A DNA stretch of 64,000 nt from an uncultured Solirubrobacterales bacterium (GCA_963768885.1 CAVYJN010000006.1:757785-821784), one strand, 5' to 3'. Numbered from the stretch's first letter, positions 17,911 to 52,147 are shown. Program-made: numbers and translations. The notes: generated by a model from the sequence alone, not told the origin.

Positions 17911-17943
17911 CCAATACGACCCTCGAGGAAGGGAAGGCTCAGA

Positions 17944-30044: not shown

Positions 30045-30817
30045 GCTCCCGCCGGCGGCTAGAGGTTTGCGCGGAGGCAGGACTCCCACCCGCCTTGAGT
30101 GCCAGATTACTATGGACTTCGCCGGGATGCGACAGGGCTTTTCGCCCGGCTGTCCGCGCGAAGCGTCCGGCCGACATCCAGGCACGTCGAGCGTCAGGGC
30201 ACGAAGAGGCCCTGACGCAGGTAGGGCGAGTTGTCCGGCGTGGAGGCCTGCCCGTCTGGCCCTCCGTCCGAGACTCGCACGTCGGCCATCTGCCAGATCG
30301 AGCGCTTGCTCTCGGTCACCGTGCCGGGCAGGATCGCGTCCGCCGTGGTGGTCACCGCGCACGTCGAGCCGATGTTCGTGCTCCCCGATGTCCCGCTGCA
30401 CGGGATCGCAAACGTGAACGGCAGGTCCGAGACCGTCGCGATCTCGTTCTGCCCCGGTCCGTTGCCCCGGTCCGTGATCCGCAGGACGACCGCCCCCTGG
30501 AGCTCGCCGAGGTAGTCCTGGTTGTTGGAGCGCAGGCGCACGTCGGTGATGCTGGTCCTGATCTCGACATCCGCTTCGTCAGCCGGCGTGCCGGGGTCGC
30601 CCACCAGGACCTTGAAGGTGAGGTTGGCGGCCATGTTCGCGGCCAGGCCATTCGCGTCGGGCGTGCCGACGGTGAGATACGGCGATGACAGCGAATGCGG
30701 GTTGCACGAAGGGGAGGCGAGGGGCGGTCCGTGCGTGCGGTTGGGAGAGGTGCACTCGTCGTACGCCGGCACGAAGGCGACCTTCAGGGGCGTGCCGCTG
30801 CGCGGACGGGGGTAGCC

Positions 30818-33800
30818 GCGCTGGTTGACAAAGGTGCACGTCACGGACTCCGCGGCGGCGACGCTCACATTCGAGACCGGGCTGCCGTTCGAGCATGCCG
30901 CGCTGATCTGCACCCAGCCGAGCGGCAGCGCCTGCGACACCGAGTAGCCGGAGCGCGGCGACAGCCCTCCGAACGTGCGGGTGTTCGAGAGCGTCGCGTT
31001 CGCGTCGTCGTCGAGCGAGAAGCTCGCCGGGCTGAGTCCGCCGCCCGCGGTGAAGCTGAAGTCCTGCGGGTCGTCTGGCTGAGAGTCCTGGACGACGGTG
31101 ATGCTTCCCTGCTTCTCGTGCCTGAAGGTGCAGGTGACCGTCTCGGCGGCCGCGACCGCGATGTCGGAGACGGGACTGCCGTCGTCGCACGTGGCCGATG
31201 CGAGGTCCCAGCCGGCCGGCGGTGTCTGCGACAGCGAGTAGCCCGAGCCCGGCACCACGTCGTCGAGCGTGCGCGAGTTGCCGAGGGTGCCGTCGGAGTC
31301 GTCGTCGAGCGAGAAGCTCGCCGGGCTGAGGCCCCCGCCCGCGGTGAAGGCGAAGTCCTGCGGGTCGTCGGGCACGGAGTCCTCGACGACTATCACCCGG
31401 CCGCGTCTCTCGTTCGTGACCGTGCACGTGACGGCCTCGCCCGCCGCGACGCTCACGTTGGAGATCGGGCTGCCGTCGTCACACGTCGTACTTGCCTGGT
31501 TCCAGCCCGGGGGCAACGGCCCTTGCGAGAACGAGTAGCCGGAGCCCGGCAGGACGTTGGCGAACGTGCGTGTGTTGGAGAGGGTCGCGTTCGCGTCGTC
31601 GTCGAGCGAGAAGCTCGCCGGCGACAGCCCGCCGCCCGCGCTGAAGGCGAAGTCCTGGGGGTCGTCGGGCACGGCGTTGAGCACCAGCGCGACCTGGCCC
31701 CGCTTGCGGTTGGTGAAGGTGCAGGTCACCTGCTCGCCCGCCGACAGCCCGATGCTCGCGACCGCGCTGCCGTCGTCACAGCTCGCCCCGGTCTGGTCCC
31801 AGCCGGCCGGCAGCGCCTGCGACAGCGAATAGCCCGAGCCCGGCACCACGCCCGCGAACGTGCGCGTGTTGGAGAGCGTCGCGTTGGCGTCGTCGTCGAG
31901 CGAGAAGCTCGCCGGGCGAGAGCCCGCCGCCCGCGGTGAACGCGAAGTCCTGGGGGTCGTCGGGCTGGGAGTCCTCGACCACGACCAGGGTCGCGCGCTT
32001 GCGGTTGGAGAACGTGCAGGTGACGGTCTCCCCGGCCGAGACGCTCACGTTCGCGACCGGGCTCGCGTCGTCGCAGCTCGCGCCGGTCTGGTCCCAGCCG
32101 GCGGGCAGCGCCTGCGCCAGCGAATAGCCCGAGCCCGGCGCGACGTCGTTGAAGGTGCGCGTGTTGGCGAGCGTCGCGTCGGCGTCGTCGTCGAGCGAGA
32201 AGCTCGCCGGGCTGAGGCCCCCGCCCGCGGTGAAGGCGAAGTCCTGGGCGTCGTCGGGGGTCGCGTCCATCACGACCACGACCCGCCCGCGCTTGCGGTT
32301 GGAGAAGGTGCAGGTGACCGCCTCCCCGGGCGCCACGCTCATGTTCGCCACAGGGCTGCCGTCGTCACACGTGGCGGCGGTCTGGTCCCAGCCGGCCGGC
32401 AGCGCCTCCGACAGCGAGTAGCCCGAGCCGGGCGCGAGGTTCGAGAAGGTGCGCGTGTTGGAGAGCGTCGCGTTGGCGTCGTCGTCGAGCGAGAAGCTCG
32501 CCGGGCGAGAGGCCCCCGCCCGCGGTGAAGGCGAAGTCCTGGGCGTCGTCGGGAGTCGCGTCCTTCACGAGCGTGATCGAGCCCCGCTTGTTGTTGGTGA
32601 GCGTGCACGTCACGTTCTCGCCGGCGGACACGCTGATGTTCGACAGCGGGCTGCCGTCGTCGCAGCTCGCGCTGGCCTGGTCCCAGCCGGCGGGCAGCGC
32701 GCCCTGCGCGAGCGAGTAGCCCGAGCCGACCGCCACGTTCGCGAAGGTGCGCGTGTTCGAGAGCGCGAGGTCGAGGTCGTCGTCGAGCGAGAAGCTCGCC
32801 GGCGACAGCCCGCCGCCCGCGCTGAAGGCGAAGTCCTGGGGGTCGTCGGGCACGGCGTTGAGCACCAGCGCGACCTGGCCCCGCTTGCGGTTGGTGAAGG
32901 TGCAGGTCACCTGCTCGCCCGCCGCCAGCCCGATGCTCGCGACCGCGCTGCCGTCGTCACAGCTCGCCCCGGTCTGGTCCCAGCCGGCCGGCAGCGCCTG
33001 CGACAGCGAATAGCCCGAGCCCGGCACCACGCCCGCGAACGTGCGCGTGTTGGAGAGCGTCGCGTTGGCGTCGTCGTCGAGCGAGAAGCTCGCCGGGCGA
33101 GAGCCCGCCGCCCGCGGTGAACGCGAAGTCCTGGGGGTCGTCGGGCTGGGAGTCCTCGACCACGACCAGGGTCGCGCGCTTGCGGTTGGAGAACGTGCAG
33201 GTGACGGTCTCCCCGGCCGAGACGCTCACGTTCGCGACCGGGCTCGCGTCGTCGCAGCTCGCGCCGGTCTGGTCCCAGCCGGCGGGCAGCGCCTGCGCCA
33301 GCGAATAGCCCGAGCCCGGCGCGACGTCGTTGAAGGTGCGCGTGTTGGCGAGCGTCGCGTCGGCGTCGTCGTCGAGCGAGAAGCTCGCCGGGCTGAGGCC
33401 CCCGCCCGCGGTGAAGGCGAAGTCCTGGGCGTCGTCGGGGGTCGCGTCCATCACGACCACGACCCGCCCGCGCTTGCGGTTGGAGAAGGTGCAGGTGACC
33501 GCCTCCCCGGGCGACACACTGATGTTCGCCACCGGGCTGGCGTCGTCACACGTGGCGGCGGTCTGGTCCCAGCCGGCCGGCAGCGCCTCCGAGAGCGAGT
33601 AGCCCGAGCCGGGCGCGAGGTTCGAGAAGGTGCGCGTGTTGGAGAGCGTCGCGTTGGCGTCGTCGTCGAGCGAGAAGCTCGCCGGGCGAGAGGCCGCCGC
33701 CCGCGGTGAAGGCGAAGTCCTGGGGGTCGTCGGGAGTCGCGTCCTTCACGAGCGTGATCGAGCCCCGCTTGTTGTTGGTGACGCGTGCACGTCACGTTCT

Positions 33801-36417
33801 CGCCGGCGGACACGCTGATGTTCGACAGCGGGCTGCCGTCGTCGCAGCTCGCGCTGGCCTGGTCCCAGCCGGCGGGCAGCGCGCCCTGCGCGAGCGAGTA
33901 GCCCGAGCCGACCGCCACGTTCGCGAAGGTGCGCGTGTTCGAGAGCGCGAGGTCGAGGTCGTCGTCGAGCGAGAAGCTCGCCGGCGACAGCCCGCCGCCC
34001 GCGCTGAAGGCGAAGTCCTGGGCGTCGTCGGGCACGGCGTTGAGCACCAGCGCGACCTGGCCCCGCTTGCGGTTGGTGAAGGTGCAGGTCACCTGCTCGC
34101 CCGCCGCCAGCCCGATGCTCGCGACCGCGCTGCCGTCGTCACAGCTCGCCCCGGTCTGGTCCCAGCCGGCCGGCAGCGCCTGCGACAGCGAATAGCCCGA
34201 GCCCGGCACCACGCCCGCGAACGTGCGCGTGTTGGAGAGCGTCGCGTTGGCGTCGTCGTCGAGCGAGAAGCTCGCCGGGCGAGAGCCCGCCGCCCGCGGT
34301 GAACGCGAAGTCCTGGGGGTCGTCGGGCTGGGAGTCCTCGACCACGACCAGGGTCGCGCGCTTGCGGTTGGAGAACGTGCAGGTGACGGTCTCCCCGGCC
34401 GAGACGCTCACGTTCGCGACCGGGCTCGCGTCGTCGCAGCTCGCGCCGGTCTGGTCCCAGCCGGCGGGCAGCGCCTGCGCCAGCGAATAGCCCGAGCCCG
34501 GCGCGACGTCGTTGAAGGTGCGCGTGTTGGCGAGCGTCGCGTCGGCGTCGTCGTCGAGCGAGAAGCTCGCCGGGCTGAGGCCCCCGCCCGCGGTGAAGGC
34601 GAAGTCCTGGGCGTCGTCGGGGGTCGCGTCCATCACGACCACGACCCGCCCGCGCTTGCGGTTGGAGAAGGTGCAGGTGACCGCCTCCCCGGGCGACACA
34701 CTGATGTTCGCCACCGGGCTGGCGTCGTCACACGTGGCGGCGGTCTGGTCCCAGCCGGCCGGCAGCGCCTCCGAGAGCGAGTAGCCCGAGCCGGGCGCGA
34801 GGTTCGAGAAGGTGCGCGTGTTGGAGAGCGTCGCGTTGGCGTCGTCGTCGAGCGAGAAGCTCGCCGGCGAGAGGCCGCCGCCCGCGGTGAAGGCGAAGTC
34901 CTGGGGGTCGTCGGGAGTCGCGTCCTTCACGAGCGTGATCGAGCCCCGCTTGTTGTTGGTGACGCGTGCACGTCACGTTCTCGCCGGCGGACACGCTGAT
35001 GTTCGACAGCGGGCTGCCGTCGTCGCAGCTCGCGCTGGCCTGGTCCCAGCCGGCGGGCAGCGCGCCCTGCGCGAGCGAGTAGCCCGAGCCGACCGCCACG
35101 TTCGCGAAGGTGCGCGTGTTCGAGAGCGCGAGGTCGAGGTCGTCGTCGAGCGAGAAGCTCGCCGGCGACAGCCCGCCGCCCGCGCTGAAGGCGAAGTCCT
35201 GGGGGTCGTCGGGCACGGCGTTGAGCACCAGCGCGACCTGGCCCCGCTTGCGGTTGGTGAAGGTGCAGGTCACCTGCTCGCCCGCCGCCAGCCCGATGCT
35301 CGCGACCGCGCTGCCGTCGTCACAGCTCGCCCCGGTCTGGTCCCAGCCGGCCGGCAGCGCCTGCGACAGCGAGTAGCCCGAGCCCGGCACCACGCCCGCG
35401 AACGTGCGCGTGTTGGAGAGCGTCGCGTTGGCGTCGTCGTCGAGCGAGAAGCTCGCCGGGCGAGAGCCCGCCGCCCGCGGTGAACGCGAAGTCCTGGGGG
35501 TCGTCGGGCTGGGAGTCCTCGACCACGACCAGGGTCGCGCGCTTGCGGTTGGAGAACGTGCAGGTGACGGTCTCCCCGGCCGAGACGCTCACGTTCGCGA
35601 CAGGGCTCGCGTCGTCGCAGGTCGCGCCGGTCTGGTCCCAGCCGGCGGGCAGCGCCTGCGCCAGCGAATAGCCCGAGCCCGGCGCGACGTCGTTGAAGGT
35701 GCGCGTGTTGGCGAGCGTCGCGTCGGCGTCGTCGTCGAGCGAGAAGCTCGCCGGGCTGAGGCCCCCGCCCGCGGTGAAGGCGAAGTCCTGGGCGTCGTCG
35801 GGGGTCGCGTCCATCACGACCACGACCCGCCCGCGCTTGCGGTTGGAGAAGGTGCAGGTGACCGCCTCCCCGGGCGACACACTGATGTTCGCCACCGGGC
35901 TGGCGTCGTCACACGTCGCGGCGGTCTGGTCCCAGCCGGCCGGCAGCGCCTCCGAGAGCGAGTAGCCCGAGCCGGGCGCGAGGTTCGAGAAGGTGCGCGT
36001 GTTGGAGAGCGTCGCGTTGGCGTCGTCGTCGAGCGAGAAGCTCGCCGGCGAGAGGCCGCCGCCCGCGGTGAAGGCGAAGTCCTGGGCGTCGTCGGGAGTC
36101 GCGTCCTTCACGAGCGTGATCGAGCCCCGCTTGTTGTTGGTGACCGTGCACGTCACGTTCTCGCCGGCGGACACGCTGATGTTCGACAGCGGGCTGCCGT
36201 CGTCGCAGCTCGCGCTGGCCTGGTCCCAGCCGGCGGGCAGCGCGCCCTGCGCGAGCGAGTAGCCCGAGCCGACCGCCACGTTCGCGAAGGTGCGCGTGTT
36301 CGAGAGCGCGAGGTCGAGGTCGTCGTCGAGCGAGAAGCTCGCCGGCGACAGCCCGCCGCCCGCGCTGAAGGCGAAGTCCTGGGGGTCGTCGGGCACGGCG
36401 TTGAGCTGCACCGTGAC
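30818..36417. repeat. Coding tandem array of 19 units of ~294-297 bp (~98 aa each) inside the giant gene
   Basis: The protein modules are listed in the findings. The same periodicity appears in mirrored antisense ORFs in the track. Confidence 0.85.
31595..36405. repeat. Higher-order repeat: ~4.07 copies of a 1,181-1,182-bp unit (four modules, A-B-C-D), near-identical between copies
   Basis: Identical antisense ORFs recur at 31860/33041/34223/35404 and at 32449/33630/34812/35993 (spacing 1181, 1182, 1181). Direct comparison of 31621ff with 32802ff shows matching sequence. Confidence 0.85.
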
Positions 36418-36427
36418 GGTGCCGGCG

Positions 36428-38837
36428 GGCACCGGCTGCCAGGCCGGCTGAGCGTCCATCACGGTGTTGTTGGTGATCCGCGTCTGGCTCGTTCCGTCGG
36501 GATTCATGACGTAGACCTCGGCGCTGGTGAACGCGCCGCGCACGAACGCGATCTTGTCGCCCGCCGGCGACCACGACGGCCGCTCGTCCACGACGGCGCC
36601 GTTGTTGGTGAGGTTGGCCGGCGCGCTGCCGTTCGAGTTCATCTTCCAGATCTCGTCACTGGAGCCATAGCCGCTGTGGAACACGATCTGGTTGCCGTCC
36701 GGCGACCAGTCGGGCTCGACGTCGACCGCCGGGGTCGCGGTCAGCGCGGCGGGCGACGTCCCGTCCGCGTTCGCGGTGTAGATGTCGCCGTCGCGCGAGA
36801 AGGCGAGCTTCGTGCCGCCGGGCGACCAGCTCGGGTAGTCCTCGTTGACCCCCGGCGTGTTCGTGATGTTCAGCTCGGCCGAGCCGTCCGCGTTCATCAC
36901 GAACAGGTCGGAGGTGCCCTGGGCGTCGTCGCGATCGCTCGCGAACACGATCTTCGCCCCGCTCGGGGCCCAGGCCGGGTGGTAGTCCCCGGCGGCGTCC
37001 TGCGTGAGCTGGGTGGCGTTGGACCCGTCGGCGTTGGCGACCCAGACGTCGGGCCGCAGGCCGGGGTTGCGCTCGAACACGATCTTCGTGCCGTCCTTCG
37101 ACCACGACGGAAAGAGCTCGTCCCCGTCGAAGCTGGTGATGCGCGTCTGGGCGGCGCCGTCGCCCGCCATCGTGTAGAGGTCGGAGTCCGCGGGAAAGCC
37201 GTCGCGCGCGCTCGAGAAGGCGAGCTTCCCGTTGGTCCCGGGGAACGCCGCCTGGACCGCGGCGGGCGCCAGCGCGCACGCCGCCAGCACGACGGCGGCG
37301 ACCATGATCGTGCGCGTTGCCCTGGCCACGGTCACGTGCCTAGCGCGTCCGGCAGGGACGCTTCTGCTTCCAGCCTGCCTGCTCGCAGACAGCGGGTCGC
37401 GAGCTGCCCTGCACCCGCACGATCTCGGTCTCGTCGGTGGCCTTCCCGTCGTCGTCGGACACGCGCACCGTGACGGTCACCTGCTCGGGCGCGGTGAACG
37501 ACTTCGAGGTGGTCGGGTCCGCCCCGGTGTCGCGCTCGAACGTGCCGTCGCCGTTGAGGTCCCACTGGTAGCGCGTGACGGAGCCGTCGGGGTCGGAGGA
37601 CGCCGAGGCGTCGAAGGCGACCGTGTCGCCCACGGACGCCGTGCGGGTCGAGGCCGTGAGGGCCGCGGAGGGGCCGCCCGCCTGCTGGTTGGAGAACTCG
37701 ATCGGGATCCGCAGCATGTCGCGGTCGAGCGTCCCGGCGCAGCCGCTGAGGTGCTGCACCGTGTAGAAGAGGTATGCGCTCTGACCGACGGTCTCGAAGT
37801 TGCGGGACGTGCTGTTGGGGTCGATCAGCGACGGGTCACGGATCGGGTCCGGCGGCACGCAGTCCTTCGTCCAGGTCAGCTCGGCCGCCATCAGGAGCTC
37901 TACGTTCGTCCAGTTCACGAGGTCGTCGGAGAGGGCGTAGTAGAAGCCCGGCGGCCGGCCGTATTGCGCGCCGCCCACCGAGGACCCGACCAGCATCCAC
38001 TTGCGCAGGTAGGTGTTGTAGGTGAGGCTCTCGGTGATCGTCCCGATGTGGAGGAAGTCCACCGGCGCGCAGACGTGCTGGGAGGGGTCCAGGGTCGCGA
38101 GGTAGGGGTTGCGGAACTGCGTGTTGAACCCGGTCCCGTTCCAGGCCCGCCACGAGGTGGGGTCGGCCAGGTTGCGGGTCCGCATCAGGCAGGTGCCGAG
38201 CTGCTGGAACCCCTTGTCCTCGGCTCTGATGAACGCGTAGAAGTAGCCGTCGCCCGAGCGCACGATGTTGCTCGGCGTGAAGTATCCGTTCGGGCCGTCC
38301 TTCGCGTATTGGTAGGGGAGCGCGGCGACCAGGTGCGACGGCGCGGCGGCCTGCGTGAAGGTCGCGCCCGAGTTGCTCGAGTAGGCGCTCGTGATCGCGT
38401 TGAACCAGCACTGGTAGCGCTCGGCCTGGGACTCGCCCGAGCGAATGCAGTTGCCGCCCGTGAAGAGGTGGCCCTGGTACTCGTTGTGGACGAGCGCGTA
38501 GACGTTCTTGCCGTCCGGCGTCCAGGGCGAGGCGAGCCACTCCTTGGCGTCGTACTTGGCGGGGTCCGAGTTGTTGGACGACGACATCGTCTTCGTGCAC
38601 GGGTGGGTGAGCGTCTCGAGGGTGTTCCCGATGAACCGGTAGTTGACGAAGTGCGTCGCCATCAGCTGCACCTTGCCGCTGTCGTCGCGGAACGCGCGGG
38701 CGGATTCGTCGGAGATGTCGTTGTCCTCGCAGCGCTGGGCGCTCCAGTCGTAGACCATCACCTCCGGCGCGGTCTGCCGCACGAAGGGCTCGTTGAACTG
38801 GAAGGCGCCGGCGGCGGCCGGCTGCAGGAGGGCGGCG
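36428..38837. repeat. Segmental duplication, copy 2
   Basis: See copy 1. Confidence 0.85.
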
Positions 38838-38893
38838 AGCGTTGCGAACGAGGCCAGGAGCAGCCCGCGCCACGCCCAGCCCTTAGTCCCCAT
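37340..38893 (-). CDS. Secreted protein: unassigned ~390-aa domain plus a C-terminal PKD domain (copy 2)
   Basis: Start at the ATG at 38893 (MGTKGWAWRGLLLASFATLAALLQPAAAGA). From LLQPAAAGA onward it is identical to copy 1 except for one residue (P vs H). Confidence 0.75.
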   Translation of the reverse strand: MGTKGWAWRGLLLASFATLAALLQPAAAGAFQFNEPFVRQTAPEVMVYDWSAQRCEDNDISDESARAFRDDSGKVQLMATHFVNYRFIGNTLETLTHPCTKTMSSSNNSDPAKYDAKEWLASPWTPDGKNVYALVHNEYQGHLFTGGNCIRSGESQAERYQCWFNAITSAYSSNSGATFTQAAAPSHLVAALPYQYAKDGPNGYFTPSNIVRSGDGYFYAFIRAEDKGFQQLGTCLMRTRNLADPTSWRAWNGTGFNTQFRNPYLATLDPSQHVCAPVDFLHIGTITESLTYNTYLRKWMLVGSSVGGAQYGRPPGFYYALSDDLVNWTNVELLMAAELTWTKDCVPPDPIRDPSLIDPNSTSRNFETVGQSAYLFYTVQHLSGCAGTLDRDMLRIPIEFSNQQAGGPSAALTASTRTASVGDTVAFDASASSDPDGSVTRYQWDLNGDGTFERDTGADPTTSKSFTAPEQVTVTVRVSDDDGKATDETEIVRVQGSSRPAVCEQAGWKQKRPCRTR

Positions 38894-39045
38894 CGTGGCT
38901 GTGATGCTCAGAATGTCCTGGTCTCCCGGACGGATGAGTCCCCCGACGCTGCCCACCCGCTGAGCACGAGGTTACCGAGGCTGCGATCGAAAGGCAAAGC
39001 CGCACGAGCCGAGGGGAGCCGTGCCGTACCCTGAGGACCAGGCAA

Positions 39046-39990
39046 ATGACTCGAGCAGCGGGCCACACCCTGGTTGCACGGGACCGCCGGTTCGGCCTCG
39101 GCCGGATCCCGCTCGTGATGGGGATCCTCAACGCCACCCCTGACTCGTTCTCGGACGCCGGCGACCACCCGGACCTTCCGTCCAGGGTGGAGCGGGGCCT
39201 GCGCCTGCTCGCCGACGGAGCGGACCTCCTCGACGTCGGCGGGGAGTCGGGCGTCACGAACCGCCCGCCCGTCGCGGCCGCCGAGGAGGTCGATCGGGTC
39301 GTGCCCGTGGTCGAGCGCCTTGCCGCCGCCGGCGCGGCGGTCTCCGTCGACACGTACAAGCCCGCCGTCGCGCGCGCCGCCGTCGAGGCCGGCGCGGTGA
39401 TGGTCAACGACCCGAGCGGGCTGATCGACGCCGACGTCGCCGCCGTCTGCGCGGACACGGGCGCGGCGCTCGTCGTCACCCACACGCGCGCGCGCCCGAA
39501 GGAGAAGCTCCACCGCCCCCGCTACGACGACGTGGTCGACGACGTCAGGCGGCTGCTGTCCGAGCGGCTCGAGGTCGCACGCGCGGCCGGCGTCCCCGAC
39601 GACCGGCTGCTCGTGTGCCCGGGCCCGGACCTCGGCAAGGACCCGGCCCAGACGGTCGAGCTGCTGCGGCGCCTCGACGAGCTGTGGGACCTCGGCGTGC
39701 CGATCCTGCTCGCCGTCTCGCGCAAGGACTTCGTGGGCGCGCTCACCGGGCGTGCGCCGCGCGAGCGCCTCGGCGGGAGCCTCGCCGCGGTGGGACACGG
39801 GCTGGACCGGGGCGCCCGCGTGCTGCGGGTCCACGACGTGGCCGCCACCCACGACTTCGTCGCGGTGCGCGCGGCGCTGCGGGGCGACGCGCCGGTGCCC
39901 GCGGACCTGCTGCTCGCGGACGAGCTGCGGCGCGAGCCGGTCGCGGTGCAGGAGGGAGCCGCGGGGGTGGCGAAGGGAGCCGGTGGATGA
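39046..39990 (+). CDS. Dihydropteroate synthase-like (pterin-binding) protein, divergent FolP paralog type
   Basis: It carries VMGILNATPDSFSDAG, LLDVGGESG, VSVDTYKP, ILLAVSRKDF and ARVLRVHDV. However, the canonical DPGxGFxK motif reads CPGPDLGK. Confidence 0.7.
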   Translation: MTRAAGHTLVARDRRFGLGRIPLVMGILNATPDSFSDAGDHPDLPSRVERGLRLLADGADLLDVGGESGVTNRPPVAAAEEVDRVVPVVERLAAAGAAVSVDTYKPAVARAAVEAGAVMVNDPSGLIDADVAAVCADTGAALVVTHTRARPKEKLHRPRYDDVVDDVRRLLSERLEVARAAGVPDDRLLVCPGPDLGKDPAQTVELLRRLDELWDLGVPILLAVSRKDFVGALTGRAPRERLGGSLAAVGHGLDRGARVLRVHDVAATHDFVAVRAALRGDAPVPADLLLADELRREPVAVQEGAAGVAKGAGG

Positions 39991-40778
39991 CCGAGGACGC
40001 CCTGCGGATCGCGCACATCTCAGACCTCCACTGCGGCTCGCCGCATTTCCAGGCCGACCTGCTCGAGCGCGCGATCGAGGAGATCAACGAGCTGCGGCCC
40101 GGCGTCACCGTGATCAGCGGCGACCTGACGGCTGACGGCTTCCGCGGCGAGTACCAGATCGCGCGGGAGTTCGTCGACCGGATCGAGTGCGAGCGGCTGA
40201 TCGTGGTGCCGGGCAACCACGACTCGCGCAACGTCGGCTACGTGCACTTCGAGGAGATGTTCGGCCCGCGCCATTCCGAGCTGCACTCGAACGGCGTCAC
40301 GATCGTGGCGGAGGACTCCTCCGAGCCCGACCTCAACCACGGCCAGGTCGGGCGCAACCGCTACCCGGTGATCGAGCAGAGCTTCCGCCACCACGCGGGA
40401 CTGCGGATCTTCGTCCTGCACCACCACCTGCTGCCGGTGCCCGGGACCGGCCGCGAGCGCAACATCGTCCACGACGCGGGCGACCTGCTCGAGGTCCTGC
40501 TGCGCTCGCGCGTCAACCTCGTGCTCGCCGGTCACAAGCACGTGCCCTACGCGTGGCGGCTCGAGGACCTGTTCGTGGTGACCACCGGCACGGTCTCGAC
40601 GCTGCGGCTGCGGGGGCACACGCGCCCCTGTTACAACGTGATCGAGATCGACCCTGAGACCGTGCGGATCGTGCGCCGCTACCCGTTCGACGGGGAGGAG
40701 CCGATCATCGAGTGGTCACGCGAGACGCCGCACGAGTACGAGAAGGCGGGGCTGCGCCGGGAGGAAGTCGGCGGGTGA
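39987..40778 (+). CDS. Calcineurin-like metallophosphoesterase
   Basis: The ATG overlaps the folP-like stop (ATGA). Motifs are HISDLHCG, ISGDLTADG, VPGNHD, VLHHHL and LAGHKHV. Confidence 0.8.
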   Translation: MTEDALRIAHISDLHCGSPHFQADLLERAIEEINELRPGVTVISGDLTADGFRGEYQIAREFVDRIECERLIVVPGNHDSRNVGYVHFEEMFGPRHSELHSNGVTIVAEDSSEPDLNHGQVGRNRYPVIEQSFRHHAGLRIFVLHHHLLPVPGTGRERNIVHDAGDLLEVLLRSRVNLVLAGHKHVPYAWRLEDLFVVTTGTVSTLRLRGHTRPCYNVIEIDPETVRIVRRYPFDGEEPIIEWSRETPHEYEKAGLRREEVGG

Positions 40779-40788
40779 GGCGGGTCCC

Positions 40789-42156
40789 TTGCGCGTCATC
40801 GCGCTCATAGACGGCGAGCACCATCCCGCGGTGGCGCGCGCGGCGCTCGATGCGCTCGAGCAGGAACACGAGATCGCCGCGGTGCTGTTCGCCGGCGGCG
40901 AGGAGAAGGTCGCGGCGGGGGTGAAGTCCGATCCACGTGCGCACTACGGTCGCCCGGTCGTGATGCCCGGCCCCGACCTGGTCGAGGCGCTGCGCTCGCT
41001 GATCCCGGCCGCCGGGGCCGACGCCCTGGTCGACCTCTCCGGCGAGCCGGTGCTCGATCCACCGAGGCGCTTCGAGCTCGCGGCGGTCGCGCTCGACCGT
41101 GGGCTGGCTTACCGGGCACCCGGCATGACGCTCGAGCCGCCCCTCGCGGTCGGGGAACCGACGAACGGGGTTCCCGTGATCGCCGTGATCGGGACCGGGA
41201 AGCGGACCGGCAAGACGGCGCTCGGCACCCATCTCGCCGCGCTCCTGCGCGACGCCGGTGAGAACCCGGTGGTGGTGTCGATGGGGCGGGGCGGCCCGCC
41301 GGAGCCGGTCGTCGTGCGCGCCGCCCAGCATGTCGGCCTGGACGGCCTGCTCGAGATCGCGCGGAGCGGGGGCCATGCCGCATCGGACTACCTCGAGGAC
41401 GCGGTGCTCGCCGGCGTGACGACCGTCGGCTGCCGCCGCTGCGGCGAGGGGCCGGCGGGGGAGACCTTCATGTCGAACGTCGTCGAGGGGTTTCGCGTCG
41501 CGCTCGCGGAGGCGCCGGGCGTGCTCGTGCTCGAGGGAAGCGGCGCGGCGCTCCCGCCCGTCGAGGCCCATGCGACCGTATGCGTCACCGCCGCGCGGCA
41601 TGCCCGGACGCAGGCGCTCGGCCACCTCGGCCCGCTGCGCCTCCTGCGGGCAGACCTGGTCGTCCTGCTCGGCGCGGCCGCGCTGGCGGCGCCCGAGCGG
41701 CGCGACCTCGAGGCCGGCCTCGCGCGCTGGGTCGCCCCCGAGCGCGTCCTCGCCTGCAGCCTGCGGCCCGAGCCCGCGGAGCCGCTGCCCGCCGGGTCGC
41801 GCGTCGCCTGTTTCGTGACGGCCTCGCCCGACGCGGCGGCCCCGATGAACGCGGAGCTGGCGGTGCAGGGCGTCGACGTCGTGCGGTTCTCCTCGAACCT
41901 GGCCCGGCGCGAGGCGCTCGAACGCGACGTGGAGGCGGCTGTGCGCGAGCGCTGCGACGTATTCCTGACCGAGTTGAAGGCGGCCGCGATCGACGTGGTC
42001 GCCGAGGCCGCGACGCGATCCGGCGCACGCCTCGCCTTCCTGCGCAACCGTCCCGTCGCCGACGATCCCGGGGCGCCGCTCGACGACGCGCTGCACGCGC
42101 TGCTCGGCACCGCTCGCGCGCGCGCGTCGGCGGGGGTCACGGAGGCGCGCCGGTGA
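40789..42156 (+). CDS. Cyclic 2,3-diphosphoglycerate synthetase (cDPGS) family protein
   Basis: 455 aa. It begins MRVIALIDGEHHPAVARAALDAL..., with P-loop VIGTGKRTGKT. Length and motifs match my recollection of the archaeal cDPGS family. The start is a TTG. Confidence 0.65.
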   Translation: MRVIALIDGEHHPAVARAALDALEQEHEIAAVLFAGGEEKVAAGVKSDPRAHYGRPVVMPGPDLVEALRSLIPAAGADALVDLSGEPVLDPPRRFELAAVALDRGLAYRAPGMTLEPPLAVGEPTNGVPVIAVIGTGKRTGKTALGTHLAALLRDAGENPVVVSMGRGGPPEPVVVRAAQHVGLDGLLEIARSGGHAASDYLEDAVLAGVTTVGCRRCGEGPAGETFMSNVVEGFRVALAEAPGVLVLEGSGAALPPVEAHATVCVTAARHARTQALGHLGPLRLLRADLVVLLGAAALAAPERRDLEAGLARWVAPERVLACSLRPEPAEPLPAGSRVACFVTASPDAAAPMNAELAVQGVDVVRFSSNLARREALERDVEAAVRERCDVFLTELKAAAIDVVAEAATRSGARLAFLRNRPVADDPGAPLDDALHALLGTARARASAGVTEARR

Positions 42157-42185
42157 GCGACGCACCGCGGTCGCGTGGCGCGCCG

Positions 42186-43133
42186 ATGGTCAGGGTCCGC
42201 AGCGACTACGGCCTGCCGTACTCCAAGGGCCTGATGGCGCAGTCGCTGATGGCGACGGGCCTGCCCTCGGAGCGCTCGTTCGCGCTCGCGCAGCAGATCG
42301 AGGAGCGGCTGGCCGCGCGCCGGTCGGCCGAGGTCGGCGTCGACGAGCTGCGGGCGGTCGCCGAGGACGTCGTGGCGGCCGCGGAGAGCGGGCAGGTGGT
42401 GGCGCGCCTGCGCCAGTGGTGGCGGGTGCGCAACCTCGATCGTCCGCTGCTGGTGCTGCTGGGCGGCGTGACAGGCGTCGGCAAGTCGACGGTCGCGACC
42501 CAGCTGGCGGGCCGGCTCGGGATCTCGCACGTGATGGCGACCGACCAGGTGCGGCAGGTCGTGCGCGCCTTCTTCTCGCACGAGTTCATGCCGTCGGTGC
42601 ACCACTCGTCCTTCGACGTCTCGAAGGCGATGTCGTCCCTGCCGCCCGACCCCTCCGGGACCGTCGCCGGCTACGTTCTCCAGGCCCAGGACATCGCGCC
42701 CGGCCTCGACGCGGTGGTCGAGCGCGCGATCTCGGACCGCACGCCGATGGTCGTCGAGGGCGTTCACCTGCTGCCGGAGATCCCGAGCGCGCACCTCTGC
42801 GAGCGCGCGACGACCGTGCGCGCGCTGATCGCGGTGCGCGACGAGGCCGAGCACCGCCAGCATTTCCACACCCGCGGGGTGCAGACGCTGCGCGCGCCCG
42901 AGCGCTACCTCGAGGCGCTGGACCGGATCCGCGTCCTGCAGGCGTACCTGATCGAGCGCGCGGAGGCTGCGGGGGTGCCGGTGATCGAGGCGCAGGGCCT
43001 CGAGGCGATGCTGCGGCGGGTGCTCGAGGTGGTGCTCGACGCGGTCGGAACCGCCTCGGGCGCTAGTCTTGCGGAGGAGTCCGGATCGGCCGGGCGCGAG
43101 CGGCGAGCGGGTCAGAAGGGAACGGGCCAATGA
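42186..43133 (+). CDS. 2-phosphoglycerate kinase (2PGK, COG2074-type) family protein
   Basis: The N-terminus is ATP-cone-like (MVRVRSDYGLPYSKGLMAQSLMATGLPSERSFALAQQIEERL). The P-loop is LLGGVTGVGKSTVATQLAGRLGI and the Walker-B-like motif is MVVEGVHL. An alternative GTG start at 42153 overlaps the cDPGS stop. Confidence 0.65.
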   Translation: MVRVRSDYGLPYSKGLMAQSLMATGLPSERSFALAQQIEERLAARRSAEVGVDELRAVAEDVVAAAESGQVVARLRQWWRVRNLDRPLLVLLGGVTGVGKSTVATQLAGRLGISHVMATDQVRQVVRAFFSHEFMPSVHHSSFDVSKAMSSLPPDPSGTVAGYVLQAQDIAPGLDAVVERAISDRTPMVVEGVHLLPEIPSAHLCERATTVRALIAVRDEAEHRQHFHTRGVQTLRAPERYLEALDRIRVLQAYLIERAEAAGVPVIEAQGLEAMLRRVLEVVLDAVGTASGASLAEESGSAGRERRAGQKGTGQ

Positions 43134-43822
43134 GATTCTTCATAGACACGGGATCTGTCGCAGAGGTCGAGGAGATCGCGGCATGGGGCATCCTCTCGGG
43201 AGCGACCACGAACCCGTCGCTGCTCGCCAAGGAGAAGGGCGAGCCCGGTGAGATCGTGCGCCGCATCTGCGACCTCGTCGGCGGCCCCGTGAGCGCCGAG
43301 GTCGTGTCCGACGACGCCGCGGGCATGATCGAGGAGGGCCACGCGCTCGCGACGCTGCACGAGCACGTCGTGGTGAAGGTGCCCTTCTCGCACGAGGGGC
43401 TGGCCGCGACCCGGGCGCTCTCGGACGACGGCATCCGGGTCAACATGACCCTGGTCTTCTCGGCCAACCAGGCTCTGCTCACGGCGCAGGCCGGCGCGGC
43501 GTTCGCGTCCTGCTTCATGGGCCGGCTCGACGACATCTCGATCGACTCCACCACCGTGGTTCGCGAGATCGTCGAGACGCTGCGCCCCGGTGGCACGACG
43601 ACCGAGGTGCTCGCCGCCTCGATCCGCCACCCCGAACACGTCGTGACGGCCGCGCGGCTCGGCTGCGAGGTCGCGACCGTGCCCACCAAGGTGTTTCGCC
43701 AGATGCTCTCGCACCCGCTCACCGAGCAGGGTCGCGAGCGCTTCAAGTCGGACTGGGAGTCCAGGCCAGAGTTCGTCGAATGGCTTCGTGAGCTGGTTTC
43801 GAAGCAGCCGGCGTCGGCTTAG
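43130..43822 (+). CDS. fsa: Fructose-6-phosphate aldolase / transaldolase (TalC/MipB subfamily)
   Basis: MRFFIDTGSVAEVEEIAAWGILSGATTNPSLL...VVKVP...NMTLVFS...SCFMGRLDD. ATGA overlap with the 2PGK stop. Confidence 0.85.
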   Translation: MRFFIDTGSVAEVEEIAAWGILSGATTNPSLLAKEKGEPGEIVRRICDLVGGPVSAEVVSDDAAGMIEEGHALATLHEHVVVKVPFSHEGLAATRALSDDGIRVNMTLVFSANQALLTAQAGAAFASCFMGRLDDISIDSTTVVREIVETLRPGGTTTEVLAASIRHPEHVVTAARLGCEVATVPTKVFRQMLSHPLTEQGRERFKSDWESRPEFVEWLRELVSKQPASA

Positions 43823-45245
43823 CGCCGAGTCGCCGGGGGCCGAGGCGGCCCCGGCGCTGGCGCTCGAGGAGGTGGAGGGCAGGCCCCTCGCGGACCTGCA
43901 CGCGCTGGCCGCGCAGGCCGGCATCCCGCGCTACCGGCTGATGCGCAGGGAGCAGCTCGTCTCCGCGCTCACCGGCGGCGCCGTCGCGACCCCCGAGCCG
44001 GCCGTCGCCCGCCGCGTCGAGCCCGTTCCCGCGGAGGCCCGCAGGCAGGAGACCGAGGACCTGCTCGAGGAGCACGCGGTCGCCGAGGAGATCGAGGAGC
44101 CCGAGCCGGAGCCGGAGCCCGAGCCGGAGGAAGCGGAGCCCGAGCCGGAGCCGGAGATCGAGGCCGAAGCCGAGGTCGAGGCAGCGCCCGAGGACGAGGA
44201 TCTCGAGGGAGAGCTGCGGTCCGGGGTGCTCGACCTGGTCGCGGACGGGTACGGGTTCCTGCGCGTCTCCGGGCTGCTGCGCTCACCGGAGGACCCCTAT
44301 GTCTCGCGGGACCTGGTGCGCCGCCACGGCCTGCGACGCGGCGAACGGGTGGCGGGCATCGTCGGCGGCGGCCCGCACGAGCGGCGACCGCGCCTGTCGA
44401 ACGTGGAGACGATCGAGGGCCGGCCGGTGACCGAGTCGCGCGACGTCCCGCCCGCGCTCGAGGAGCTGCCCGCGCGACGCCCGTCCCGGCCGCTGAGCTT
44501 CGGCGACTCCGATGCGGCGCGGATGGTGGAGCTGGTGGCACCGCTCGGATACGGCCAGCGGGTGCTCGTCTCGGGGCCGCCGGGCAGCGGCGCCACGGCG
44601 CTGCTGCGCCAGATTGCGGAGGGGATCGAGAGCGGCGGGACGCGCGTGCTGGTCGCGCTCGTCGACGTGCGCCCGGAGGAGGTGGGCGAATGGCCCGCCG
44701 CCGTGGAGGTCGCCGCAGCGGATGCGGGCAGCTCGCCTCGCGAGCAGGTCGCGCTGGCCGAGCTCGCGCTGGAGCGGGCCAAGCGGATCGCGGAGCGGGG
44801 CGAGGACGTCGTGCTCGTGCTCGATTCGATCAGCCGGCTGACCCGCGCCTACGGGCTCGCGCGCGGCGCGGGCACCGGGGAGGCGCATGCGGTGGGCCCG
44901 GTGGCCGTCGAATCGGTGAAGCGCTGGTTCGCCGCGGCCCGGGACGCCGGCGACGGCTCGCTGACGATCATCGCGGCCGCGCGCGTGGAGTCGGAGTCCG
45001 CCTTCGAGACGCTCGTCCACGAGGCGCTCGAGGACAGCGCCGGCAGCGTCGTGCGGCTCAGCCCCGAGCTGGCCGCGAAGGGCATGCGCCCGGCGATCGA
45101 CCCCGCCCGCTCGCGGACCCTGGGCGAGGAGGCGCTGATCGACGACGAGCGCCGCCGCACGCTCGAGAACATGCGCGGGGTTGCCCGCTCGCTCGATCCA
45201 GCCGAGGCCTGGGAGTTCCTGGCCGAGCGCGCACGTGAGGCCTGA
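43788..45245 (+). CDS. rho: Transcription termination factor Rho homologue with an acidic (EP)n insertion and degenerate ATPase motifs
   Basis: Rho_N region (LADLHALAAQAGIPRYRLMRREQLVSAL). OB/RNP motif GVLDLVADGYGFLRV...YVSRDLVRRHGLRRGERVAG. ATPase core VLVSGPPGSGATALL...LVDVRPEEV...VVLVLDSISRLTRAY...GSLTIIAAA. The start is uncertain: the GTG at 43788 overlaps fsa by 35 nt. Confidence 0.75.
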   Translation: MSWFRSSRRRLSAESPGAEAAPALALEEVEGRPLADLHALAAQAGIPRYRLMRREQLVSALTGGAVATPEPAVARRVEPVPAEARRQETEDLLEEHAVAEEIEEPEPEPEPEPEEAEPEPEPEIEAEAEVEAAPEDEDLEGELRSGVLDLVADGYGFLRVSGLLRSPEDPYVSRDLVRRHGLRRGERVAGIVGGGPHERRPRLSNVETIEGRPVTESRDVPPALEELPARRPSRPLSFGDSDAARMVELVAPLGYGQRVLVSGPPGSGATALLRQIAEGIESGGTRVLVALVDVRPEEVGEWPAAVEVAAADAGSSPREQVALAELALERAKRIAERGEDVVLVLDSISRLTRAYGLARGAGTGEAHAVGPVAVESVKRWFAAARDAGDGSLTIIAAARVESESAFETLVHEALEDSAGSVVRLSPELAAKGMRPAIDPARSRTLGEEALIDDERRRTLENMRGVARSLDPAEAWEFLAERAREA

Positions 45246-45275
45246 GGGCCGCCGCCGGCGACTTCGCCGGTCCGC

Positions 45276-45746
45276 TCAGCCCGGGTAGGCGACGGGCTTC
45301 CAGGAGGGCTCGGGCGAGAGCTCGATCAGCTCGGAGTCGCGATCGGGCTGCACGTAGCCGAAGCTGTGCGTGTCCGCGTGGAAGAAGATGTCGAGCTCGC
45401 CTTCCTTGACGCGCTGGTCGAGCCAGGCGCCGCGGAACACGAGCCGCCGCAGCCAGTGCACGAGCGAACGGTCCGCCGGGCCGACGAGGTCGTACCAGCG
45501 CTCGTTGACGTGCTCGCCCAGCGGGGAGGAGGGCTCGCGTATGTCGCCGTTCACGGCGAGGTTGACGAGATCGTCCAGCTCCTCGACCGCAAGCCCCGGC
45601 TGCACGAAGCAGAGCTTCACGGCGGCCTGCTCGACGCGCTGCCGGAAGTCCTCCTCGTTGAAGGTGAAGCGCAACTCCCCGTATTCGAGGACGTAGTCCT
45701 CCCCGGAGTTGTAGTTGCCCCGCTTCTTGGTGTCGTCTCGTGACAT
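45276..45746 (-). CDS. Hypothetical protein (156 aa)
   Basis: The coding-looking part of ORF 45276-46133 begins at the ATG at 45746 (MSRDDTKKRGNYNSGEDYVLEYGELRFTFNEEDF...). I recognise no family. Confidence 0.5.
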   Translation of the reverse strand: MSRDDTKKRGNYNSGEDYVLEYGELRFTFNEEDFRQRVEQAAVKLCFVQPGLAVEELDDLVNLAVNGDIREPSSPLGEHVNERWYDLVGPADRSLVHWLRRLVFRGAWLDQRVKEGELDIFFHADTHSFGYVQPDRDSELIELSPEPSWKPVAYPG

Positions 45747-50408: not shown

Positions 50409-51245
50409 TCAGATCCCGGCGACGCGGTCTGCGCCCGCATAGACGTTGAAGCCCCCGTCGCGCAGGAACCCGACGAGCGTCATGCCGGATTCCCGCGCCA
50501 GGCGCACCGCCAGGCTCGAGGGGGCCGACACCGCGGCGAGCACCGTCACGCCGGCGACGAGCGCCTTCTGGGTGATCTCGAACGACGCCCGCCCCGACAC
50601 GAGCAGCACCAGGCGGTCGAGCGGGTGAAGCTCGTCCATCGCCGCGCGCCCCACCAGCTTGTCCACGGCGTTGTGGCGCCCGACGTCCTCGCGCAATTCG
50701 ACGAGGCCACCGTCCGGGGTGAAGAGGCCGGCCGCGTGCAGGCCGCCCGTGCGCGCGAACCCGCGCTGGCGCTCGCGCATCTCGCCCGGCATGGAGTGCA
50801 GGTGCGCGGCCTCGACGCGCGGCCCGTCGCCGAGCGGGGCCGCCGCGACGCGCACGGCCTCGATGCTCTGCTTGCCGCAGATCCCACAGGAGGATGTCGT
50901 GTAGAAGCGGCGCTGCAGGCCGTGCGCGGAGGCCGTCCCGGTGCGCGTGCGCACGTCGGCGATGCCTCCGTCGCCCTCGGGAGCGCGGCACTCGGCCACC
51001 CGGGCGACGTCCTCCATCGCCACGATCGCCTCGCCGAGGAGGAAGCCGAGCGCGAGCTCCGCGTCCTCGCCGGGAGCCGGCGTGCGCATCGTCACCGCCA
51101 CGCGCTCTCCGTCGAGCCGGATCTCGAGCGGCTCCTCCGTCGCCACGGCGTCGGACGTGCGACGCGTCTCCCCGCCGCGCACGTGCACGACCGGCAGCCG
51201 CTCGACCGGCCGGCCGTCGCGCAGCTCGCGCTCCGCCGTGCTCAT
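50409..51245 (-). CDS. fdhD: Formate dehydrogenase accessory sulfurtransferase FdhD
   Basis: MSTAERELRDGRPVERLPV...YTTSSCGICGKQSIE...GGLHAAGLF...VGRHNAVDKLVG...LLVSGRASFE. ATGA overlap with the upstream stop. Confidence 0.85.
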   Translation of the reverse strand: MSTAERELRDGRPVERLPVVHVRGGETRRTSDAVATEEPLEIRLDGERVAVTMRTPAPGEDAELALGFLLGEAIVAMEDVARVAECRAPEGDGGIADVRTRTGTASAHGLQRRFYTTSSCGICGKQSIEAVRVAAAPLGDGPRVEAAHLHSMPGEMRERQRGFARTGGLHAAGLFTPDGGLVELREDVGRHNAVDKLVGRAAMDELHPLDRLVLLVSGRASFEITQKALVAGVTVLAAVSAPSSLAVRLARESGMTLVGFLRDGGFNVYAGADRVAGI

Positions 51246-52147
51246 CCCCGCGCCTCGCGGCGCGCGCGCTGCGGGCCCACCGTGAACGCAGGGTCGCGCG
51301 CCGAGTCGACCCCCGCCTTGAAGACCGACCAGCGCTCGGCGGCGGCGCCCATGAGGACCGCGAGCCCACCCGACGTGACCGCGACGCGGCTGCGCCGTGA
51401 TCCCGCGATCATGCCCGCGCCGGCGAGCATCGAGACCCGCGCGAGCCGCGCATACCGCCCGGCCTCGCCGCGGTGGTAGGGGGCGGCCAGCGGCCCGAGG
51501 CGGCGCTCCATCCTGGCCGCGGACACCTGCGCCCCGAGCGCGCCGATCACGGCGAGCCGGCGCGCCGGGCGGGCGTCGCGGGCCGGGGTCGCAATCGCGA
51601 CGGCGGCTCCCGCGCTCGCGGCCGCGCTCGAGGCGAACACGAACGGCAGGTCGTGGCGCGCCTCGCGCCAGGCCGGGACGGCGGTGTTGGCGATCAGCAC
51701 GGCCGTGTACGTCGCCATCGGCAGCCCGCTGAGCCCCGCTCCCACGCGGGCCGCCGCCCCGGCGCGCGGCATCACGCCGAGCACGCGCGACGCGGTGGCC
51801 AGCCCGTTCGTGGCGCCCGACGCGGCGACCACCCAAGATCCGACGCTCATCGGCGAGGTGACCTTGAAGACGCGCAGCATGTTGAGGAAGCGCTCCGGGC
51901 GGCCGAGGTCGGTGATCAGGAGGGCGGGGCTCGCGGTGCCCGCGAGCATCGCGACGGCCGACGCGCGCCGCGCGAGCCGGTCGTGGCCGGCGATCTCCGC
52001 CAGGAGCGCGAACGTCGATGCGGCGCCGGTCAACCCGCCCGTGAAGAAGTACCACGGGACCTGCGGCTTCCACACCGGCGGCTTGATCACGGGGCGGCCG
52101 TAGTAGGAGCGCGGCTCGACGCGCTCGACCATGCGCAGCTCCTTCAC
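51242..52147 (-). CDS. NrfD/PsrC-type integral membrane subunit of the formate dehydrogenase complex
   Basis: ...SYYGRPVIKPPVWKPQVPWYFFTGGLTGAAS..., followed by about 8 TM helices. The GTG at 52147 was chosen; the ATG at 52132 is an alternative. Confidence 0.7.
   Translation of the reverse strand: MKELRMVERVEPRSYYGRPVIKPPVWKPQVPWYFFTGGLTGAASTFALLAEIAGHDRLARRASAVAMLAGTASPALLITDLGRPERFLNMLRVFKVTSPMSVGSWVVAASGATNGLATASRVLGVMPRAGAAARVGAGLSGLPMATYTAVLIANTAVPAWREARHDLPFVFASSAAASAGAAVAIATPARDARPARRLAVIGALGAQVSAARMERRLGPLAAPYHRGEAGRYARLARVSMLAGAGMIAGSRRSRVAVTSGGLAVLMGAAAERWSVFKAGVDSARDPAFTVGPQRARREARG

Follow-up and report, generated by a model that had tools for sequence, protein, structure and literature searches.

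Cyclic 2,3-diphosphoglycerate (cDPG) is said to occur only in (hyper)thermophilic methanogens (PMC10690619; bioRxiv 10.1101/2025.02.21.639460), and its synthetase (cDPGS, or CpgS) has been used in ancestral reconstructions as a marker of a thermophilic past (PMC7554672). A membrane-bound cDPG hydrolase activity is on record from Methanothermobacter, with no gene named for it in the review (PMC1224877). Here we describe a block of co-directional genes in a 64,000-nucleotide (nt) stretch of DNA from an uncultured Solirubrobacterales bacterium (GCA_963768885.1 CAVYJN010000006.1:757785-821784; hereafter, the window). The block carries homologues of CpgS and of 2-phosphoglycerate kinase (2PGK) next to a metallophosphoesterase (MPE), and it probably encodes a bacterial version of the two-step cDPG pathway.

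The window thus holds both enzyme families of the pathway found in Methanothermus fervidus and Methanothermobacter. Its CpgS homologue shares with the M. fervidus enzyme (8ORK/8ORU) the same two-domain length and the motifs GTGKRxGKT, DGEH, GGxEK, MGRGGP, HAASD, GCRRCG, EGSGA, and TELKAAA. Unlike the Methanobacteriales, however, the host, a bacterium of the Solirubrobacterales type, is high in G+C and apparently mesophilic, and its cpgS and 2PGK genes are adjacent, translationally coupled, and preceded by the MPE gene. The protein also resembles ArcE (TK2200) of Thermococcus kodakarensis in belonging to a P-loop family that is widespread in bacteria and was formerly misannotated or unannotated (PMC11032458), but the published description of ArcE sets the two apart, as the window protein is a full-length relative of cDPGS in a 2PGK and MPE context without arcB or arcC. 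The MPE has the fold and all of the metal-binding motifs of the class III enzymes GpdQ (Enterobacter aerogenes) and Rv0805 (Mycobacterium tuberculosis), but it is only about 19 to 23% identical to them, carries a distinct subfamily motif, and is linked to cpgS. The step that we propose for it, from cDPG to 2,3-diphosphoglycerate (2,3-DPG), would be that of the Methanothermobacter hydrolase; in contrast to that membrane-bound activity, the window MPE has no obvious signal or membrane segment as judged by eye, and no MPE lies beside the Methanothermobacter cpgS.

The protein families themselves are already known, and thousands of their bacterial members have been named automatically; the window genes are new, uncharacterized members. 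What is new is the conserved three-gene organization with a phosphoesterase, its fixed place beside rho in deep-branching Actinomycetota, and its presence in bacteria that appear to be mesophiles. In the open-access full-text literature, the only bacterial work on cDPGS or cDPG that we found was heterologous production in Thermus, and none dealt with Actinomycetota; this agrees with the statement in an earlier reading of this DNA (the original prediction) that cDPG synthesis has not been demonstrated in bacteria.

RESULTS AND DISCUSSION

The CpgS homologue

Judged by its sequence, the 455-amino-acid (aa) product of the third gene belongs to the cDPGS (CpgS) family. A phmmer search of the PDB aligned its residues 2 to 436 with residues 5 to 445 of the M. 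fervidus chain (8oru/8ork; E value, 3.4e-71) and also matched 9sxb (3.8e-60). The identity to the M. fervidus enzyme is 34 to 35%. The published ligands of that enzyme are E45 (from the partner subunit), K145, R146, K149, T150, D208, T353, E404, and K406 (PMC10690619), and they are matched in the window protein by E39/K40, K138, R139, K142, T143, D200, T344, E395, and K397. All nine ligands of 2,3-DPG, Mg, and nucleotide that could be placed were invariant in an alignment of 16 sequences that included the archaeal enzyme (E305 and P335 fall in a poorly aligned stretch and lie outside this count), and the other signature motifs of the family were likewise invariant. A Pfam and NCBIfam scan of the window protein returned no family except a subthreshold LpxK match, which reflects the content of the library, as it lacked the PF27272 model; the corresponding domain, CpgS_N, is carried by close homologues that are up to 90% identical to the window protein. 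The assignment to cDPGS made in the original prediction is therefore borne out by the full-length structural match together with the ligand residues.

The same evidence bears on whether the protein could be an ArcE-type arginine synthetase, a member of a distant cDPGS paralogue family described in 2024, and we find that idea hardly credible. The two families are recognizably similar, and ArcE homologues occur in a wide range of bacteria, Actinomycetota among them, but the similarity between the two families has been called "low" (PMC11032458), whereas the window protein matches cDPGS from end to end at 3e-71 with the 2,3-DPG ligands in place. The N-terminal domain specific to cDPGS (PF27272 in close homologues) also argues against ArcE, as do the fixed partnership of window-type proteins with a 2PGK-family kinase and the lack of ornithine transcarbamoylase and carbamate kinase among the operon genes and the immediate flanking open reading frames (ORFs) scanned.

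In a neighbor-joining tree, the window protein lies in a divergent Solirubrobacterales/Thermoleophilia clade, the one most distant from the assayed enzyme, and, within a broad radiation, the Methanobacteriales group tightly in a single small clade. The original prediction had raised the question of transfer from archaea to bacteria. The tree places the window protein, but it is midpoint-rooted, without an ArcE outgroup or support values, and the direction of transfer is not readable from it. A bacterial CpgS from a locus of the same operon type (L081; L numbers denote the compared loci) shares 50% of its residues with the M. fervidus enzyme. We also considered 9sxb as a characterized bacterial cDPGS and rejected it: it is ∼62% identical to the metagenomic protein P0163 (JGI 3300003509) and ∼50% identical to the Methanobacteriales proteins, and it falls outside the window clade.

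The 2PGK-family kinase

The 315-aa form of the fourth gene product matched the 2PGK model NF003259 over residues 5 to 290 (9e-74; 248.6 bits against a cut-off of 343) and the 2PGK model NF008994 over its full length (3e-74; 250.2 bits against a cut-off of 603). Because these scores are below the curated cut-offs, we treat the protein as a member of the 2PGK family and not as a proven equivalog. The model for mevalonate-3-phosphate 5-kinase scored 77 bits, about 170 below the 2PGK models. Kinases adjacent to cpgS in a haloarchaeon, an Asgard archaeon, Cloacimonadota, and other bacteria gave the same ranking of models, at 296 to 313 bits, also below the cut-off. The aligned cpgS-linked kinases have in common the motifs PYSKG, GGxxGxGKST, TDxxRE, and GVHxxP; the P-loop of the window kinase reads GGVTGVGKST, and the protein has AAA_33, AAA_17, and AAA_18 matches. 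No solved structure for this kinase family was found in a PDB search.

The full-length NCBIfam matches sustain the earlier assignment of this gene to the 2PGK family, and with the results for CpgS they place the two proteins in the 2PGK and cDPGS families and not in other P-loop families. The ATP-cone-like N terminus that had been proposed for the kinase gave a mixed picture: the window protein had no Pfam match to an ATP-cone at an E value of ≤0.01, and such matches were seen only in aligned homologues (1.4e-4 in L073, faint in L090, and weak in L093).

The metallophosphoesterase

The second gene product matched Metallophos (PF00149) at 6e-17, in keeping with the original call. Its five metal motifs (SDLH, GD, GNHD, HHH, and GHKH) are all present and are invariant in the MPE alignment, and it carries the subfamily motif HHHLLPVPGTGRER (pattern HHHLxPxPxTGRER). 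The window MPE is 56% identical to the MPE of L081 (1e-101), 34% identical to that of Cloacimonadota, and 31 to 33% identical to the cpgS-linked MPEs of Asgard archaea; across the compared loci, the cpgS-linked MPEs have mutual identities of 31 to 56% (E values, 1e-34 to 1e-101). The best PDB sequence match was Rv0805, at only 6e-8. Because the linked MPEs are so much closer to one another than to any solved relative, a single MPE subfamily appears to travel with cpgS and the 2PGK gene. An AlphaFold2 model (pLDDT, 86.2) was nearest to GpdQ and Rv0805, with a TM score of ∼0.65 and a probability of 1.0.

We propose that the MPE is a candidate cDPG hydrolase or 2,3-DPG phosphatase with a degradative or regulatory role, because its catalytic motifs are intact and it is coinherited with the pair, yet it is absent beside cpgS in organisms where two enzymes are known to suffice for synthesis. 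To our knowledge, no gene for a cDPG hydrolase is known, and the MPE offers a candidate for one.

In the Cloacimonadota locus (L082, 8733 to 10232) and the Asgard locus (L083, 8367 to 9902), the MPE linked to cpgS has two MPE domains fused in tandem, of which the C-terminal one is probably a pseudoenzyme domain, since its metal motifs are degenerate (for example, SNTF, GG, and GTSSH in L082).

Distribution and gene linkage

Relatives of the third gene product number more than 7000 database proteins, many of them automatically named cyclic 2,3-diphosphoglycerate synthetase by JGI or NCBI. At an E value of ≤1e-30 they form 177 clusters (50% clustering), and in a scan of one genome per GTDB species they occur in at least 581 genomes. 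The best 80 of these at least 581 comprise 29 Thermoleophilaceae, 4 Solirubrobacterales, 9 Coriobacteriia, 1 Gaiellaceae, 34 otherwise labeled Actinomycetota or uncultured metagenome-assembled genomes (MAGs), 2 probable misbinnings, and 1 haloarchaeon. The genome nearest to the window is a Solirubrobacterales MAG (L001), with identities of 90% for the MPE, 84% for the kinase, and 80% for folP. In a family of this size, most of it from organisms other than methanogens, the "archaeal-type" label of the original prediction needs changing, as the genes are not a rare import.

We counted linkage by tblastn of the window proteins on 86 loci. Of the 83 loci with room for a 2PGK-like gene, 81 had one immediately after cpgS and 1 had it immediately before; only Methanothermobacter had none. 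The MPE gene immediately preceded cpgS in 60 of 80 loci; another 14 had it at some other place in the locus, and 6 lacked it. The kinase gene was followed by a transaldolase gene in 44 of 73 loci and by glpX in 7, and rho came after the module in 60 of 86. The distribution of folP was narrower (28 loci, all of them of the Solirubrobacterales/Thermoleophilaceae type). Chance does not explain the arrangement, since dozens of independent genomes show the genes in this same collinear order.

The composition of the individual loci varied around this core. L081, from a bacterium with 44% G+C, reads ApgM...MPE-CpgS-kinase-Tal-Rho, and in L085 ApgM adjoins cpgS (kinase-CpgS-ApgM-CBS). In Gaiellaceae-type loci, glpX overlaps the kinase gene. 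The Cloacimonadota locus holds a 5'-nucleotidase-type MPE, CpgS-kinase-CBS, and the tandem MPE, and the Asgard (Borrarchaeum) locus reads GDPD-CpgS-kinase followed by the tandem MPE. In the haloarchaeon Natronorubrum, CpgS-kinase is followed by a nonhomologous phosphoesterase with a PHP domain. The cpgS genes of M. fervidus and Methanothermobacter, by contrast, have a RimB-like gene next downstream and neither a kinase gene nor an MPE gene in the vicinity. We also ran the comparison in reverse, from three MPE homologues picked only for their long contigs, and all three lay in the order hom-(thrC)-thrB-[MPE-CpgS-kinase-Tal]-rho-rpmE. The agreement among these three points to a fixed, probably old, position of the module in deep-branching Actinomycetota.

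The original prediction had called the operon context unlike the archaeal one, with reference to the pterin-binding-like protein and the phosphoesterase. The phosphoesterase does not set this operon apart, as clustering with one is the rule outside the methanogens, Asgard archaea included; the link to folP is indeed confined to Thermoleophilia-type genomes. MPE-CpgS-2PGK without folP occurs in Coriobacteriia, Aquicultor-type genomes, Gaiellaceae, Cloacimonadota, and Asgard archaea.

Two other kinds of gene of compatible-solute type adjoin the module in some genomes. In L088 (2007 to 3149), a mannosylglycerate-synthase-like glycosyltransferase gene (PF21969) adjoins it, and in L026 (10 to 2211) and L090 (2540 to 4771), a GDE/MGH1-like glycoside hydrolase gene (mannosylglycerate hydrolase family) lies beside it.

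A putative bacterial cDPG pathway

From the homology, the conservation of ligand residues, and the gene linkage observed in the previous sections, we infer substrates, a product, and a role for the MPE, and we think, with moderate confidence, that the genes of the block constitute a bacterial form of the two-step cDPG pathway. The kinase would convert 2-phosphoglycerate and ATP to 2,3-DPG, and the CpgS homologue would use a second ATP to close an intramolecular pyrophosphate ring, giving cDPG. The MPE would most likely act on the same metabolites, either returning cDPG to 2,3-DPG or dephosphorylating 2,3-DPG, so that the pool could be both built and drawn down. The transaldolase (GlpX or ApgM in other lineages) would tie the module to the gluconeogenic and lower-glycolytic pool that supplies 2-phosphoglycerate. 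Glycolytic or gluconeogenic intermediates are suggested as substrates because ApgM, GlpX, and transaldolase are recurrent neighbors, and cDPG has been linked to gluconeogenesis (PMC1224877). The product might serve as an osmoprotectant or desiccation protectant or as a reserve of phosphate, carbon, or energy. It would not be a thermoprotectant, because the organism looks mesophilic; an estimate from IVYWREL composition, a crude figure based on 27 window ORFs, puts optimal growth at ∼22°C.

It is important to note that several observations weigh against this pathway. The clade of the window CpgS is the furthest from the assayed enzyme (34 to 35% identity, with the same placement in the neighbor-joining tree), and the kinase falls under the NCBIfam cut-off for 2PGK (248.6 against 343 bits) in a family that includes kinases for other substrates, such as mevalonate-3-phosphate 5-kinase. 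The proven cDPG makers, the Methanobacteriales, have neither cpgS-2PGK nor cpgS-MPE clustering; because no MPE lies beside their cpgS, the enzyme is evidently not needed for synthesis, and the role that we give it is thus a guess. The MPE model, moreover, predicts a generic GpdQ/Rv0805-like fold that offers no clue to the substrate. Finally, folP and the MPE gene are split from cpgS by insertions in some Thermoleophilaceae, and since the two stay paired when this happens, the MPE could instead belong with folP.

Some of these points would also fit a module with the same chemistry and a different substrate. The pair would then doubly phosphorylate and cyclize another phospho-acid or polyol, or stop at a linear bis- or pyrophosphate, with the MPE acting in biosynthetic trimming, and the product would not be cDPG. 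The divergence of the window CpgS clade, the score of the kinase below the 2PGK cut-off in a family with other substrates, and the fact that bacteria and Asgard archaea keep the MPE next to the pair while the known cDPG makers do not are what such a module would lead one to expect. We nevertheless regard it as unlikely, since the residues placed in contact with 2,3-DPG are invariant, the ApgM, GlpX, and transaldolase neighbors point to triose- and hexose-phosphate metabolism, and the CpgS of L081, in the same type of operon, is 50% identical to the assayed enzyme.

The purpose of the product could also be different. Instead of a bulk solute, 2,3-DPG or cDPG might be made at a low level as a regulator or a source of cofactor (a signal gating gluconeogenesis, or 2,3-bisphosphoglycerate supplied to the cofactor-dependent phosphoglycerate mutase), with the MPE keeping the level low. 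The protein composition suggestive of a mesophile (∼22°C), the position of the module among housekeeping genes (thrB ... rho-rpmE) in other Actinomycetota, and the frequency of a hydrolase-type partner in the locus (the MPE counts given above) are all compatible with such a role. However, sequence says nothing about concentration, and spending two ATP per molecule, with a dedicated cyclase, would be a strange way to make a cofactor that the mutase has other means of obtaining. We judge a low-level role to be quite improbable.

Under the preferred reading, a two-step cDPG pathway with its own phosphoesterase, a wider proposal can be made, which we advance tentatively as one possibility. cDPG may be commonplace among mesophilic Actinomycetota of deep-branching lineages, Thermoleophilia among them, and in other phyla, made and consumed by the three-gene module, with the MPE as the cDPG hydrolase and the pool as a reserve of phosphate, carbon, or energy or as a desiccation protectant. 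Thermoleophilia are abundant soil bacteria, and accumulation of the solute by soil Actinomycetota, if it occurs, would represent an unrecognized pool of organic phosphorus. cDPG is also a sought commercial extremolyte, for which bacterial enzymes working at moderate temperatures would be useful, as would a hydrolase gene that could be removed from production hosts. The use of cDPGS as a marker of thermophily is undermined because the intact module occurs in hundreds of apparently mesophilic bacterial genomes.

Gene layout and start sites

The G+C content of the window is about 72%. We read every junction directly and found six plus-strand ORFs between 39046 and 45245 (Table 1), which confirmed the gene order, all four junctions, and both P-loops of the original prediction. 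The folP-like and MPE genes overlap by ATGA at 39987 to 39990. Between the MPE stop codon and the cpgS start is a gap of 10 nt that holds GAGG, 8 nt before the TTG at 40789. The 455-aa ORF that begins there has the N terminus MRVIALIDGEHHP and the P-loop GTGKRTGKT, and we favor the TTG as its start because homologues begin at the same residues.

At the end of cpgS, the sequence GTGA occupies 42153 to 42156, and the next ATG is at 42186. The GTG at 42153 is the more likely start of the kinase gene, to judge from a GGAGG 7 nt upstream, the 4-nt overlap with cpgS, and an equivalent overlapped start in a relative (L093); the ATG is likewise compatible with the N termini of kinase homologues. The kinase and transaldolase genes overlap by ATGA at 43130 to 43133, an arrangement of translational coupling.

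The genes upstream of folP, which encode secreted PKD/SpaA-repeat proteins, are on the opposite strand, making folP the first gene of the block. A promoter and terminator scan of 38800 to 45600 gave no sigma-70-like sites and one terminator-like match, at chance level, within the kinase gene. An Rfam scan of 38700 to 39300 returned nothing, and hence no riboswitch precedes folP.

Table 1. Coordinates of the genes of the block, its downstream flank, and other features of the window
Feature	Position	Strand	Matches or remarks
folP-like gene (dihydropteroate synthase family), first of the block	39046-39990	+	PF00809, TIGR01496
Metallophosphoesterase (MPE), 263 aa	39987-40778 (TGA at 40776-40778)	+	PF00149
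CpgS (cDPG synthetase) homologue, 455 aa, TTG start	40789-42156	+	PDB 8oru/8ork
2-phosphoglycerate kinase (2PGK)-family gene	42153 (GTG, 326 aa) or 42186 (ATG, 315 aa) to 43133	+	NF003259, NF008994
Small TalC-type transaldolase	43130-43822 (TAG)	+	PF00923, TIGR00875
Rho, syntenic downstream flank	43788-45245	+	Rho_N, Rho_RNA_bind, ATP-synt_ab; NF006886 (7e-67)
Two tRNA genes	16008-16091, 16142-16216	+	
Cobalamin riboswitch	17721-17916	+	72 bits, above gathering score
ABC ATPase/cyclase-like fusion, 1173 aa	21607-25128	+	
Run of large secreted-looking proteins	28461-38956	-	PKD, SpaA-like prealbumin-fold, PD40 repeats
Near-duplicate ORFs within that run, 191 aa each	31776-32351, 32957-33532		
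NrfD-like membrane subunit	51242-52147	-	
Molybdopterin oxidoreductase	52934-56131	-	Fe4S4, Molybdopterin, Molydop_binding
Cytochrome P450, split in different frames	59470-59982, 60093-60674	+	Profile positions 36-170 and 324-439

The folP-like, transaldolase, and rho genes

The folP-like protein matched Pterin_bind at 7e-64 and the dihydropteroate synthase (DHPS) model TIGR01496 at 254.9 bits, above the cut-off of 162.6, so that the earlier folP-like call stands. In the PDB it scored 204 bits against a genuine DHPS (6day) and 138 bits against FolP2 (2vp8). Its loop 2 reads GGESGVTNRPP against the canonical GGESTRPG, and its D185 motif reads CPGPDLGK against the canonical DPGFGFGK; equivalents of N22, D96, N115, SRK, and RVHDV are kept. 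The operon-linked copies (28 loci; L001-L076) share these deviations, with the patterns GGESG[RV]T[DN] and DPG[IPLV]D[LFI][AG]K, and in the window clade (C[PA]GPDLGK) the pterin-binding Asp is replaced by Cys. The operon-linked FolP-like proteins of Thermoleophilia may not be ordinary dihydropteroate synthases. We considered whether they are paralogues of the FolP2 (Rv1207) type and rejected this as unproven, as the window and Thermoleophilaceae copies score higher against genuine DHPS than against 2vp8; a literature search for a folP2/gpgS link gave nothing usable.

The altered motifs raise one further reading, that the folP-like protein, the MPE, and the two kinases of Thermoleophilia form a single pterin-related pathway in which the kinases build a pyrophosphate ester used by the DHPS-like enzyme. 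The coupling of folP to the MPE gene in the window, their pairing despite insertions before cpgS, and the consistent changes in the para-aminobenzoate- and pterin-site motifs are in line with it, but the protein scores above the equivalog cut-off for DHPS, and its nearest solved relatives are genuine DHPS. Most lineages carry the module with no folP beside it, which in our view makes a pterin-related role very unlikely.

The product of the fifth gene matched PF00923 at 6e-53 and TIGR00875 at 253.8 bits, above the cut-off of 245.95. Against the PDB, transaldolases scored 201 to 235 bits (1wx0 at 235, with 1vpx and 3r8r), whereas the fructose-6-phosphate (F6P) aldolase 1l6w reached ∼110 bits. 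As far as these matches tell, the protein is a small transaldolase and not an F6P aldolase, which keeps the second half of the original label, "F6P aldolase/transaldolase," and discards the first. Its Glu57 and the Phe in CFMGR are residues that we take to be of the transaldolase type.

The rho gene is co-directional with the module and belongs to the conserved block. The true start of Rho is probably later than the first GTG of its ORF. At residues ∼100 to 140, after the N-terminal domain and before the RNA-binding one, the ORF has an insert of low complexity (EEIEEPEPEPEPEPEEAEPEPEPEIEAEAEVEAAPEDEDLE) that is acidic and rich in Pro-Glu and Glu-Ala.

Other features of the window

Several features elsewhere in the window are listed in Table 1. 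The molybdopterin oxidoreductase gene contains an in-frame TGA at 55565 to 55567 (in 'IENQARI*HSSTVPGLG'), at what we take to be the selenocysteine site of formate-dehydrogenase-type enzymes, and for this reason the two ORFs are probably parts of a single selenoprotein gene. The gene for an NrfD-like membrane subunit lies downstream of it. The two parts of the cytochrome P450 are in different frames, which may reflect a frameshift, pseudogenization, or an error in the assembly. The cobalamin riboswitch stands just before an ORF at 17944 to 19731, and the two tRNA genes are upstream of it. The 1173-aa ORF is an unusual fusion of two ABC ATPase domains, an ECF-transporter-like membrane part, and a C-terminal toroid resembling prenyltransferases and squalene-hopene cyclases.

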